This document shows positions 57,011-61,113 of a stretch of DNA of 64,000 nucleotides, piece by piece; positions within the stretch are counted from its first letter, which is position 1, and each line of letters opens with the position of its first letter. Location of the stretch: the NCBI RefSeq assembly GCF_058153355.1, contig NZ_CM177019.1. The stretch is one strand, 5' to 3'. A program made the translations under genes and the position numbers. The notes under the pieces were generated by a model that saw nothing but the letters and a program-made list of their open reading frames with translations, did no database searches and was not told where the DNA came from.

Positions 57011-57212
57011 ACGAAATTTTGTGATTTATTAACTCTACGAAATATGATTTTGATATATAAGGAAATTTATTTTTGTAAAGGTTGAGGATGAAGGTAAGCG
57101 TCTTATCAGGACCGTCTGGCAAATTCCCGATGCTTTGGACAAAGTATCCACCACTAAATTAATAGTGGGTGATAAAAATGTCAGATATACAAAAAAATGC
57201 CTCTCCGGGAAG

Positions 57213-58638
57213 TAATGCCGATCAGTTAAGGATCAGTTGACCGATCCAGTGGCTGTGTAAGAATCCGGAAACGCTCACTTGTTTCCGGATTTTTTTATGC
57301 ACATTGGACAGGCTCTTGATCTGGTATCCCGTTACGATTCTCTGCGTAACCCACTGACTTCTCTGGGGGATTACCTCGACCCCGAACTCATCTCTCGTTG
57401 CCTTGCCGAATCAGGTACTGTAACGCTACGCAAGCGCCGTCTTCCCCTCGAAATGATGGTCTGGTGTATTGTTGGCATGGCGCTTGAGCGTAAAGAACCT
57501 CTTCACCAGATTGTGAATCGCCTGGACATCATGCTGCCGGGCAATCGCCCCTTCGTTGCCCCCAGTGCCGTTATTCAGGCCCGCCAGCGCCTGGGAAGTG
57601 AGGCTGTCCGCCGCGTGTTCACGAAAACAGCGCAGCTCTGGCATAACGCCACGCCGCATCCGCACTGGTGCGGCCTGACCCTGCTGGCCATCGATGGTGT
57701 GTTCTGGCGCACACCGGATACACCAGAGAACGATGCAGCCTTCCCCCGCCAGACACATGCCGGGAACCCGGCGCTCTACCCGCAGGTCAAAATGGTCTGC
57801 CAGATGGAACTGACCAGCCATCTGCTGACGGCTGCAGCCTTCGGCACGATGAAGAACAGCGAAAATGAGCTTGCTGAGCAACTTATAGAACAAACCGGCG
57901 ATAACACTCTGACGTTAATGGATAAAGGTTATTACTCACTGGGACTGTTAAATGCCTGGAGCCTGGCGGGAGAACACCGCCACTGGATGATACCTCTCAG
58001 AAAGGGAGCGCAATATGAAGAGATCAGAAAACTGGGTAAAGGCGATCATCTGGTGAAGCTGAAAACCAGCCCGCAGGCACGAAAAAAGTGGCCGGGACTG
58101 GGAAATGAAGTGACAGCCCGCCTGCTGACCGTGACGCGCAAAGGAAAAGTCTGCCATCTGCTGACGTCGATGACGGACGCCATGCGCTTCCCCGGAGGAG
58201 AAATGGCGGATCTGTACAGTCATCGCTGGGAAATCGAACTGGGATACAGGGAGATAAAACAGACGATGCAACTGAGCAGGCTGACGCTGAGAAGTAAAAA
58301 GCCGGAGCTTGTGGAGCAAGAGCTGTGGGGTGTCTTACTGGCTTATAATCTGGTGAGATATCAGATGATTAAAATGGCGGAACATCTGAAAGGTTACTGG
58401 CCGAATCAACTGAGTTTCTCAGAATCATGCGGAATGGTGATGAGAATGCTGATGACATTGCAGGGCGCTTCACCGGGACGTATACCGGAGCTGATGCGCG
58501 ATCTTGCAAGTATGGGACAACTTGTGAAATTACCGACAAGAAGGGAAAGGGCCTTCCCGAGAGTGGTAAAGGAGAGGCCCTGGAAATACCCCACAGCCCC
58601 GAAAAAGAGCCAGTCAGTTGCTTAACTGACTGGCATTA
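57213..58638 (+). mobile_element. IS4 (1426 bp), copy 2, nested inside IS66-family orfA
   Basis: Identical to copy 1; flanking target duplication ctctccgggaag. Confidence 0.9.
57297..58625 (+). CDS. insG: IS4 transposase (442 aa), copy 2
   Basis: Protein identical to copy 1 in the ORF track. Confidence 0.9.
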
Positions 58639-59031
58639 CTCTCCGGGAAGGCCTAAAGGGTGCCTGAATTATCCTCCTGAATTCAAACAACGACTCATAG
58701 AAGCATCATTCCAGCCAGGTGTTTCAATTTCCAGACTGGCCCTGGACAATGGTATTAATGCCAATCTGTTGTTCAAATGGCGTCAGAAATGGCGGCAGGG
58801 GAAGATAAAATTGCCATCATCAGAATCAGGCAGAGAATCTCAGTTAATTCCTGTCACTATTGATGCCCAACTCCCAACTGCTCCGGCTAATGAGCCACTG
58901 ACCGCAAGACCGTCAGTAACACCGGAAATACACAGCATCTCCTGTGAGATTACGTTCAGAAACGGCACCCTTCGGTTGAACGGGGCAGTGAATGAAAATC
59001 TGCTGTCCTTGCTTATACAGGAGCTGAGACG

Positions 59032-59379
59032 GTGATATCTCTCCCTGCAGGTTCGCGTATCTGGCTGGTTGCAGGTATCACCGATATGCGAAATGGCTTT
59101 AACGGCCTGGCCTCAAAAGTTCAGAACGTCCTGAAGGATGACCCGTTCTCCGGGCATCTGTTCATCTTCCGCGGACGCCGGGGTGACCAGATAAAAGTGT
59201 TGTGGGCTGACAGTGACGGACTGTGCCTCTTCACCAGACGCCTGGAGCGGGGCCGCTTCGTCTGGCCGGTCACCCGTGACGGCAAGGTGCACCTTACTCC
59301 GGCCCAGTTATCCATGCTTCTTGAGGGCATCGACTGGAAACACCCGAAACGAACGGAACGCGCTGGCATCCGCATATAA
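59032..59379 (+). CDS. IS66-family accessory protein TnpB (orfB, 115 aa)
   Basis: MISLPAGSRIWLVAGITDMRNGFNGL... typical IS66 orfB; 4-bp overlap with orfA. Confidence 0.8.
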   Translation: MISLPAGSRIWLVAGITDMRNGFNGLASKVQNVLKDDPFSGHLFIFRGRRGDQIKVLWADSDGLCLFTRRLERGRFVWPVTRDGKVHLTPAQLSMLLEGIDWKHPKRTERAGIRI

Positions 59380-59398
59380 CCCGTTGTAAAGTGAGGAT

Positions 59399-60970
59399 AT
59401 GGACACCTCACTTGCTCATGAGAATGCCCGCCTGCGGGCACTGTTGCAGACGCAACAGGACACCATCCGCCAGATGGCGAAATACAACCGCCTGCTCTCA
59501 CAGCGGGTGGCGGCTTATGCTTCCGAAATCAACCGGCTGAAGGCGCTGGTTGCAAAACTGCAGCGCATGCAGTTCGGTAAAAGCTCAGAAAAACTTCGTG
59601 CAAAAACCGAACGGCAGATACAGGAAGCACAGGAGCGAATCAGCGCTCTTCAGGAAGAAATGGCGGAAACGCTGGGTGAGCAATATGACCCGGTACTGCC
59701 ATCTCCCCTGCGCCAGTCTTCAGCCCGTAAACCGTTACCTGCCTCACTTCCCCGTGAAACCCGGGTCATCCGTCCGGAAGAGGAATGCTGCCCGGCCTGT
59801 GGTGGCGAACTCAGTTCTCTGGGATGTGATGTGTCAGAGCAACTGGAGCTTATCAGCAGCGCCTTTAAGGTTATCGAAACACAACGTCCGAAACTGGCCT
59901 GTTGCCGGTGCGACCATATCGTGCAGGCTCCGGTGCCTTCAAAACCCATTGCACGCAGTTATGCCGGAGCGGGGCTTCTGGCCCATGTTGTCGCTGGAAA
60001 ATATGCAGACCATCTGCCGTTATACCGCCAGTCAGAAATATACCGTCGTCAGGGCGTGGAGCTGAGCCGTGCCACACTGGGGCGCTGGACAGGTGCTGTT
60101 GCTGAACTGCTGGAACCGCTGTATGACATCCTGCGCCAGTATGTGCTGATGCCCGGTAAAGTCCATGCCGATGATATCCCCGTTCCGGTCCAGGAGCCGG
60201 GCAGCGGTAAAACAAGGACTGCCCGGCTGTGGGTCTACGTTCGTGATGACCGTAACGCCGGTTCGGAAATGCCTCCGGCGGTCTGGTTCGCGTACAGCCC
60301 GGACCGGAAAGGTATCCATCCACAGAATCATCTGGCCGGTTACAGCGGAGTGCTTCAGGCCGATGCTTACGGTGGTTACCGGGCGTTGTACGAATCCGGC
60401 AGAATAACGGAAGCCGCATGTATGGCTCATGCCCGGAGAAAAATCCACGATGTGCATGCAAGAGTGCCCACCGACATCACCACGGAAGCCCTGCAGCGTA
60501 TCGGTGAACTGTATGCCATCGAGGCAGAGGTCCGGGGCTGTTCAGCAGAACAGCGTCTGGCGGCAAGAAAAGCCAGAGCCGCGCCACTGATGCAGTCACT
60601 GTATGACTGGATACAGCAACAGATGAAAACACTGTCGCGTCACTCGGACACGGCAAAAGCGTTCGCATACCTGCTGAAACAGTGGGATGCACTGAACGTG
60701 TACTGCAGTAATGGCTGGGTGGAAATCGACAACAACATCGCAGAGAACGCCTTACGGGGAGTGGCCGTAGGCCGGAAAAACTGGCTCTTCGCGGGTTCTG
60801 ACAGCGGTGGTGAACATGCTGCGGTGTTGTACTCGCTGATCGGCACATGCCGTCTGAACAATGTGGAGCCAGAAAAGTGGCTGCGTTACGTCATTGAACA
60901 TATCCAGGACTGGCCGGCAAACCGGGTACGCGATCTGTTGCCCTGGAAAGTTGATCTGAGCTCTCAGTAA
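59399..60970 (+). CDS. IS66-family transposase TnpC (523 aa)
   Basis: N-terminal coiled-coil, CxxC zinc-finger region and DDE-type core as recalled for IS66 TnpC. Confidence 0.85.
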
Positions 60971-61113
60971 ATATCAATACGGTTCTGGCGAGCCGCTTAC
61001 GGATGAAGGTGATGGGGCAGGGATCAGAATTGCGCGTTTTAGTGAGTTGTATCTATTAATTTTCAAATAAATACAATTGGTTATGTGTTATTGGGTGAAG
61101 GGGATCGAGAGGC

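Follow-up and report, generated by a model that had tools for sequence, protein, structure and literature searches.

A 3.9-kb block of insertion-sequence DNA lies in the immunity region of a lambdoid prophage within the window (the whole 64-kb stretch of DNA analysed), and this raises the questions of how the block came to be there and whether it affects the prophage. The original prediction described it as an IS66-family element whose orfA is itself split by IS4. We consider it very probable that the block arose by two independent, ordinary transpositions into the lambdoid prophage, the IS66-family element having entered first and IS4 second. The outer element comprises the following features:

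57086..57093, no strand: left GGATGAAG copy of the IS66-family element, present as a single copy at the uninterrupted junctions of relatives
57094..57212, plus strand: left part of the IS66-family element with the left inverted repeat GTAAGCGTCTTATCAGGACCGTCTGG, collinear with the intact copies L087, L075 and L076
57179, plus strand: start of tnpA, of which codons 1-11 plus 2 nt precede IS4; the left copy of the IS4 duplication (57201-57212) is within the left part
58651..61000, plus strand: right part of the IS66-family element with the remaining tnpA, tnpB, tnpC and the right inverted repeat ending in CGCTTAC
to 59035, plus strand: remainder of tnpA with HTH_Tnp_1
59032-59379, plus strand: tnpB, 115 aa, TnpB_IS66 (E 7e-40)
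59399-60970, plus strand: tnpC, 523 aa, DDE_Tnp_IS66 (E 4e-104) together with LZ_Tnp_IS66, zf-IS66 and DDE_Tnp_IS66_C
61001..61008, no strand: right GGATGAAG copy, an exact sequence match

The IS66-family element thus extends from 57094 to 61000 and measures 2,469 bp after subtraction of IS4 and one copy of its duplication. Its termini GTAAGCG and CGCTTAC belong to imperfect inverted repeats over about the first 26 bp, and imperfect terminal repeats of the GTAAGCG type are typical of the IS66 family. The 8-bp target duplication GGATGAAG flanks the element at 57086-57093 and 61001-61008, and a duplication of this length is reported for IS66 (PMC6778807). Ends and duplication are those originally predicted, the end given there as 61008 including the right duplication copy. 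In the domain search the genes are tnpA, tnpB and tnpC with a DDE_Tnp_IS66 transposase, and TnpC is identical at 514 of 523 positions (98%) to WP_000381395.1, labelled by PGAP as 'IS66-like element ISCro1 family transposase'. A transposition-competent member would carry three intact IS66 genes; here, tnpA is broken in codon 12. The Rfam scan of 46000-64000 revealed no RNA family within the IS block.

The interruption of tnpA is caused by a second element:

57213..58638, plus strand: complete IS4 with Nterm_IS4 (E 3e-33) and DDE_Tnp_1 (E ~9e-32)
57279/57297-58625, plus strand: IS4 transposase ORF, ~442 aa, intact
58639..58650, no strand: right CTCTCCGGGAAG copy of the IS4 duplication, a single copy in the intact L087 element and in p16F5M1D101

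This IS4 is exactly 1,426 bp long, in agreement to the base with the original prediction. Its ends read TAATGCC..GTCAGTTAAG, and the terminal inverted repeats TAATGCCGATCAGTTAAG and TAATGCCAGTCAGTTAAG agree at 16 of 18 positions. It shows 99.8% identity over 1,426 bp, that is three nucleotide differences, to an IS4 annotated as insG (WP_000483767.1) in a laboratory strain of E. coli. Length (~1.4 kb), a single DDE transposase with the IS4 N-terminal domain and terminal repeats of ~18 bp are those of the IS4 family, and near-identity, judged against the insG-annotated copy, identifies it as IS4 itself. IS4 is known to duplicate 11-13 bp of its target, and duplications of 11, 12 and 13 bp were all seen in this analysis. 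For the IS4 family as a whole a value of ~10 bp is given (PMC2266710). The 12-bp duplication CTCTCCGGGAAG is present at 57201-57212 and 58639-58650 and nowhere else in the 64-kb window.

The predicted split of the reading frame is real, too, and its stated position after codon 11 is accurate to within one codon: IS4 entered two bases into codon 12. In-silico removal of IS4 restores a tnpA ORF of 139 aa with an HTH_Tnp_1 domain. Within the composite, a 202-aa ORF (58427-59035) begins in IS4 and continues in frame into tnpA, so that a truncated or fused TnpA might formally still be made. The tnpA gene is reportedly essential in IS679, and the same may hold for the element studied here. With tnpA split and tnpB and tnpC at full length, the element is a disrupted IS66-family member which has probably lost its autonomy, a reasonable suggestion of the original prediction.

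Natural counterparts of both empty sites were found. In E. coli STEC299 and PC-NDM34 the corresponding prophages have GTTGAGGATGAAGGTGATGGGG as one continuous sequence and contain GGATGAAG only once. In the prophages L077 and L078, whose cI is identical at 233 of 235 positions, the junction from terminator to pL is uninterrupted as well; in L078 the octamer differs from GGATGAAG at two bases and there are a few differences around it. In all, four related prophages have an uninterrupted terminator-to-pL junction. Furthermore, in all ten contigs with a gene for the identical DUF1828 protein, the junction to N is free of IS elements. For the inner site, GCA_047897835.1 (L087) contains an intact IS66-family copy of 2,469 bp which is 99.8% identical, aligns without gaps, has a single CTCTCCGGGAAG and is bounded by its own 8-bp duplication CACCGGAC. 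Uninterrupted relatives with 94-96% identity are present in E. coli 2013C-3033 and p16F5M1D101. Both sites rebuilt in silico match these natural uninterrupted sequences. Because the duplications are located exactly at the ends of the elements and both reconstructed sites match natural sequences, a nesting by chance is excluded, and the two transposition events of the original prediction are borne out, each marked by a target duplication of its own.

The same evidence bears on the assembly. The window contains two IS4 copies with 100% identity, and such repeats are classic assembly traps, so mis-joined IS repeats could in principle simulate a nesting. However, the duplications are perfect, specific for their sites and of the lengths typical of the two families (8 bp for IS66, 11-13 bp for IS4), and both pairs of flanks rejoin into naturally uninterrupted sequences. 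Since a mis-join offers no way of producing matching duplications at both levels of the nesting, we regard an artefact as extremely improbable.

The other IS4 copy of the window is relevant to the order of events:

46585..48010, plus strand: second IS4, 100% identical and in the same orientation, with a 13-bp duplication CCCCTATGTGACC

It is located 9.2 kb from the nested copy and breaks a DUF1175 (yfaT-like) gene adjoining the integrase end of the prophage. The chromosomal DNA beside the prophage (gyrA-yfaA) is only ~95% identical to E. coli genomes. Given a second, identical IS4 at this distance, IS4 most likely came second, by a local hop into an IS66-family element that was already resident. 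In a first step, the 2,469-bp element would have entered the non-coding DNA that separates the terminator of the cI operon from OL/pL, duplicating the 8 bp GGATGAAG. In a second step IS4, most likely donated by the copy 9.2 kb away, would have entered the 5' end of the resident tnpA with duplication of 12 bp. The result would be an IS66-family element without intact TnpA, which should depend on TnpA provided in trans for its movement.

Alternatively, the 3,907-bp IS66::IS4 composite might have moved into the prophage as a unit, its tnpA having been broken elsewhere and TnpA being provided by another IS66-family copy. Such a mobilisation in trans is mechanistically possible with outer inverted repeats, tnpB and tnpC intact, it would leave an identical 8-bp duplication, and IS4-interrupted IS66 elements are present in other genomes. 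Yet the IS4/tnpA junction of the window has no other copy among 5,426 complete E. coli genomes, and no complete E. coli genome covers at least 80% of the region 56600-61500, which speaks against a ready-made composite in circulation. The window contains no second IS66 copy, the one public contig whose TnpC is identical carries an intact tnpA, and an identical candidate donor of IS4 is located nearby. Movement as a unit is therefore unlikely, and insertion of IS66 followed by IS4 remains our preferred reading.

The choice of the inner site may be related to the target preference of IS4, which is of the AAA-N20-TTT type. In the profile of 62 non-redundant IS4 flanks, T was found in 85% at positions +18 and +19, and three left flanks have AAA at -17 to -19. 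The site in the window has the same AAA at -17 to -19 and carries AAA in the right arm where T is usual; it therefore fits the left arm of the profile only. An A-run is located four bases (three in some other alleles) upstream of the GC-rich duplicated segment, and it is this combination that matches the left arm of the preference. At the homologous position of tnpA, IS4 was also found in YL03 with a 12-bp and in S1-ESP-02-A with an 11-bp duplication. At least three independent hits in divergent tnpA alleles (12, 12 and 11 bp, respectively, including the one described here) lead us to propose, tentatively, a recurrent landing pad for IS4 at the 5' end of IS66-family tnpA, where an A-run precedes a GC-rich segment that codes for Pro/Arg and lies immediately ahead of the helix-turn-helix. 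In that case one insertion sequence would disable another time and again. The recurrent hit in tnpA is a small illustration of the arm-dependent target choice of IS4. A strong hotspot was considered, too, and rejected: on inspection, none of the 62 non-redundant flanks, which come from IS4 copies in other species, resembled IS66 tnpA, and despite the very common occurrence of the YL03-type tnpA, its junction with IS4 is present in only 9 of 5,426 E. coli genomes. Hits in tnpA are thus recurrent but rare. A literature search for IS4 nested in IS66 yielded nothing specific.

Turning to the prophage, the features on both sides of the block are:

55671-55729: Lambda_thermo RNA element (cIII thermoregulator) from the Rfam scan
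56510..56779, minus strand: N antiterminator gene, 90 aa, Pfam N_peptide (E 3.4e-32), first gene of the leftward early operon
56896..56925, minus strand: nutL-like site upstream of the N gene, boxA TGCTCTTTAA followed by a boxB hairpin (56896-56909)
56971..57050, minus strand: putative OL/pL block, in which an 11-bp inverted repeat (~56978-57010) overlaps the putative pL
56999-56971, minus strand: putative pL, sigma-70-like, TTGATA-17-CATTAT
61122..61139, minus strand: intrinsic terminator, CCCGGCCTCAGCGCCGGG then CTTTCTTTGC, closing the cI–DUF3024–DUF6978–DUF1828 operon and conserved in related prophages

A repressor with Peptidase_S24 and HTH_3 domains divergent from a cro-like gene, an N_peptide gene downstream of the putative pL and the cIII thermoregulator characterize a lambdoid immunity region, and related prophages share the gene order cI, accessory genes, terminator, OL/pL and N. 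As predicted, the insertion lies between the intrinsic terminator of the cI operon and the putative pL/nutL/N unit, the terminator being 113 bp from the right GGATGAAG copy and 121 bp from the right end of the IS66-family element. TTTCGTA repeats at 57010 and 57036, near the putative pL, are also present in the cI/cro intergenic region and, judged by sequence, may represent OL. This motif has seven sites in the whole window, three of which are in the OL and OR regions; the putative OL and OR share just one exact 8-mer. The OL/pL block is conserved in prophages with a cI at least 98% identical.

The original prediction further suggested altered regulation of pL or read-through from the immunity operon. 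For this we found no support: the insertion cuts no gene, terminator, promoter or presumed operator, the terminator still adjoins its operon, and the IS genes are oriented opposite to both phage operons. A broader version would be that the insertion is consequential and selected, either the separation of OL and OR or transcription leading out of the block altering repression, induction or candidate defence genes linked to cI. Indeed, as the one structural consequence for the prophage, the 3.9 kb of inserted DNA increase the spacing between OL and OR from ~2.7 to ~6.6 kb. In addition, tnpC and the DUF1828 gene converge, and on the plus strand the terminator has no T-run. On the other hand, no control element is cut, a promoter scan of the left end found no outward-facing promoter, and the insertion was found in no other genome, so that nothing points to its spread or fixation. 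Looping between OL and OR of phage lambda tolerates changes in spacing of such an order. We therefore hold a selected effect to be quite improbable; that the insert measurably weakens repressor looping and shifts the threshold of prophage induction is a conjecture.

Beyond annotation, the significance of the locus is small. An annotation should list the 3.9-kb block as IS66-family::IS4 and not as phage genes, with the IS66 tnpA as a pseudogene. Useful markers specific to the strain are provided by the nested junctions and by the pair of identical IS4 copies. This pair also forms direct repeats bracketing the int-xis-N-pL arm of the prophage, and recombination between them could delete this arm and strand the prophage.

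Compared with known systems, the nested arrangement is routine mobile-element litter, composed of already known kinds of element, and no new system. The outer element has the three-ORF organisation common to its IS66-family relatives IS679 and ISEc8. Sequence comparison shows the element to be a mosaic. Over its last 1,968 bp it shares 97% identity with the ISCro1-type copies common in E. coli, whereas for the first 500 bp, comprising the left inverted repeat and a short TnpA, there are matches in only 12 E. coli records, with 93-95% identity, and this TnpA (139 aa) shows only 36% identity to the usual TnpA of 216 aa. With respect to the known E. coli IS4 (insG), the only new feature is the landing site in an IS66-family tnpA. 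Like other IS insertions in immunity regions of lambdoid prophages (Stx and cryptic E. coli prophages), the block occupies a non-coding or moron-rich part of the early region; unlike in the prophage described here, this site is empty in every related prophage retrieved.

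Between 57086 and 61008 the prophage carries two nested insertion sequences, an IS4 within an IS66-family element. The ends and the 8-bp and 12-bp target duplications are all present in the sequence as the original prediction had described them:

57094 (GTAAGCGTCTTATCAGG...) to 61000 (...GAGCCGCTTAC), IS66-family element, from sequence inspection
57086-57093 and 61001-61008, its 8-bp target duplication GGATGAAG
57213-58638, IS4, 1,426 bp
57201-57212 and 58639-58650, 12-bp target duplication CTCTCCGGGAAG of IS4
59032-59379, tnpB, second ORF, TnpB_IS66 (Pfam)
59399-60970, tnpC, third ORF, LZ, zinc-finger, DDE and C-terminal IS66 transposase domains (Pfam)

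The ends of the outer element are imperfect inverted repeats, with the first 7 bases the same and scattered matches to about base 26. The IS4 termini (TAATGCC...) match at 16 of 18 positions, and the IS4 ORF contains the domains Nterm_IS4 and DDE_Tnp_1 (Pfam). Beyond the two IS4-flanking copies, the 12-mer CTCTCCGGGAAG does not occur in the 64-kb window. IS4 enters tnpA (start 57179) after base 2 of codon 12, in line with the proposed split after codon 11. In-silico removal of IS4 and one duplication copy leaves an element of 2,469 bp, in which tnpA encodes an uninterrupted 139-aa protein (HTH_Tnp_1, Pfam).

The proposed location between the cI-operon terminator and the putative OL/pL agrees with the gene order, which on the minus strand reads from right to left repressor, DUF genes, terminator, IS block, promoter, nut-like site and N:

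62873-63580, minus, S24/HTH repressor, divergent from a cro-like gene
61147-62812, minus, DUF3024, DUF6978 and DUF1828 genes, between cI and terminator
61139-61122, minus, intrinsic terminator, right of the IS block
56999-56971, minus, putative sigma-70-like promoter TTGATA-17-CATTAT, overlapping an 11-bp inverted repeat
56896-56925, minus, boxA-like TGCTCTTTAA and boxB-like hairpin
56510-56779, minus, N_peptide gene

The operators and the promoter are putative assignments from consensus and conservation. Two TTTCGTA repeats lie near the putative promoter and the motif is also present in the cI/cro intergenic region; these two short regions hold three of the seven TTTCGTA sites of the 64-kb window. 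The duplicated octamer lies outside the inferred operators, about 40 bp from the outermost repeat, and the putative -35 hexamer follows about 90 bp downstream of the octamer. The gene directly after N in the pL operon encodes an Nmad5 protein (nucleotide modification associated domain 5; 55822-56460, minus), and a lambda cIII thermoregulator RNA element lies further downstream of N. The left arm of the prophage also contains an sRNA-Xcc1 match (Rfam, 63.8 bits; 50367-50456, minus). The DUF3024, DUF6978 and DUF1828 proteins match the PADLOC candidate defence families PDC-S43 (E 1.5e-41), PDC-M24A and PDC-M24B. Their genes occupy the position of lambda rexAB, and other prophages carry the same cassette behind three or more distinct repressor alleles; it looks like a mobile, lysogen-expressed candidate defence moron.

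Both empty sites reconstructed in silico match natural uninterrupted sequences. Joining 57093 to 61009 yields ...GTTGAGGATGAAGGTGATGGGGCAGGGATCAG..., and this terminator-to-OL junction aligns unbroken, without an IS, with the prophages of E. coli STEC299 and PC-NDM34. It is also unbroken in two further prophages, whose repressor is identical to that of the window at 233 of 235 positions; one of them (L078) has a few base differences around the octamer. None of the contigs encoding an identical DUF1828 protein (10/10) carries an IS between the DUF1828 gene and N. The IS4 empty site is found in GCA_047897835.1 (L087), the sole public contig with an identical TnpC:

L087 5017-7485, contig ABXYKR010000031.1, intact IS66-family copy of 2,469 bp, 99.8% identical to the window element

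This copy differs by 5 mismatches and no gaps, contains CTCTCCGGGAAG once and is flanked by its own 8-bp duplication CACCGGAC. It is probably located on a conjugative plasmid, because its neighbours are tra genes and the gene for a SPATE-type autotransporter. More distant uninterrupted IS66-family copies gave the same empty-site result. Since natural sequences match both empty sites, the two insertions and their four boundaries are verified at the sequence level independently of the window.

A further IS4 copy is present nearby:

46585-48010, same orientation as the nested copy, second IS4, 100% identical

It is flanked by a 13-bp duplication (CCCCTATGTGACC) and splits a DUF1175 (yfaT-like) gene just outside the prophage integrase end. 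Among 5,426 complete E. coli genomes, the closest match to the chromosomal flank (43500-46584; gyrA 3' end, yfaA, DUF1175 gene) has only about 95% identity. The window may come from a divergent lineage of Escherichia rather than from typical E. coli. The two direct IS4 repeats bracket the attL-int-xis...N-pL arm, which homologous recombination between them could delete.

The most economical history of the nesting would be that the IS66-family element entered the prophage spacer first and that IS4 then hopped over a short range into the resident element, because an identical IS4 lies 9.2 kb away, the inner junction is absent from the E. coli complete genomes searched, and L087, which alone among the other copies encodes an identical TnpC, is intact. 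Alternatively, a pre-formed IS66::IS4 composite might have been mobilised in trans. With tnpB, tnpC and its two ends intact, the element could be mobilised in trans, but next to the three observations favouring entry of the IS66-family element first we regard such an origin as improbable. The element is probably non-autonomous because tnpA is split; Han and colleagues are said to have found in 2001 that tnpA is required in IS679.

No phage gene, nor the terminator, promoter or inferred operators, is cut by the insertion, and the IS genes lie on the strand opposite to both phage operons. Because the terminator is still joined to the cI operon, the insertion lowers the likelihood of new read-through into pL. 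Only one physical change is clear: the inferred OL and OR, formerly about 2.7 kb apart, are now separated by about 6.6 kb. Two ORFs reading out of IS4 are predicted only: 58427-59035 (202 aa) starts in the 3' part of IS4 and crosses the right inverted repeat in frame into tnpA, and 47799-48242 (147 aa) leads from the second IS4 across its right inverted repeat into the DUF1175 gene remnant.

At three E. coli loci an IS4 interrupts another IS66-family TnpA, of 216 aa, at the homologous position (codons for KKRPRRP, directly ahead of the HTH):

L001 3001-4438, E. coli YL03, 12-bp duplication CCCCGGCGGCCC
L088 1175-2611, E. coli S1-ESP-02-A, 11-bp duplication CCCCGGCGGCC
L002 about 4284, plasmid p2022H047-1, right junction only

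Landing at this spot is rare overall, the YL03-type junction being found in 9 of 5,426 complete E. coli genomes. This recurrent target is a modest extra of the window finding, as are the candidate defence cassette that follows cI and the pair of direct IS4 repeats on either side of the left arm.

A target profile was compiled from 62 non-redundant IS4 right flanks of other Enterobacterales (from 69 loci, L006-L074); many IS4 copies are present in Kosakonia oryziphila, Budvicia diplopodorum and Silvania hatchlandensis. In the duplicated segment a C-rich part precedes a G-rich one. T has a frequency of 85% at +18 and +19, and a T-run occurs in 79% of the flanks compared to 8% of control segments. 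IS4 insertion sites look like intrinsic terminators, with a GC-rich pseudo-palindrome ahead of a T-run. Three IS4 left flanks have AAA at -17 to -19; the window site has an A-run at -16 to -22 without a T-run. The choice of the window site fits the left arm of the IS4 target preference.

Judging from the alignments, the IS66-family element is a mosaic. Its bases 502-2469 show 97% identity to the copies common in E. coli, whereas the left 500 bp have matches in only 12 E. coli records (93-95%) and the 139-aa TnpA shares 36% identity with the usual 216-aa TnpA. TnpC has 514 of 523 identities with a protein labelled by PGAP as "IS66-like element ISCro1 family transposase". The nested IS4 is 99.8% identical across all 1,426 bp to an IS4 annotated as insG in a laboratory strain of E. 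coli. The insertion, correctly described originally, is a fully ordinary case of a nested IS made up of two known elements.
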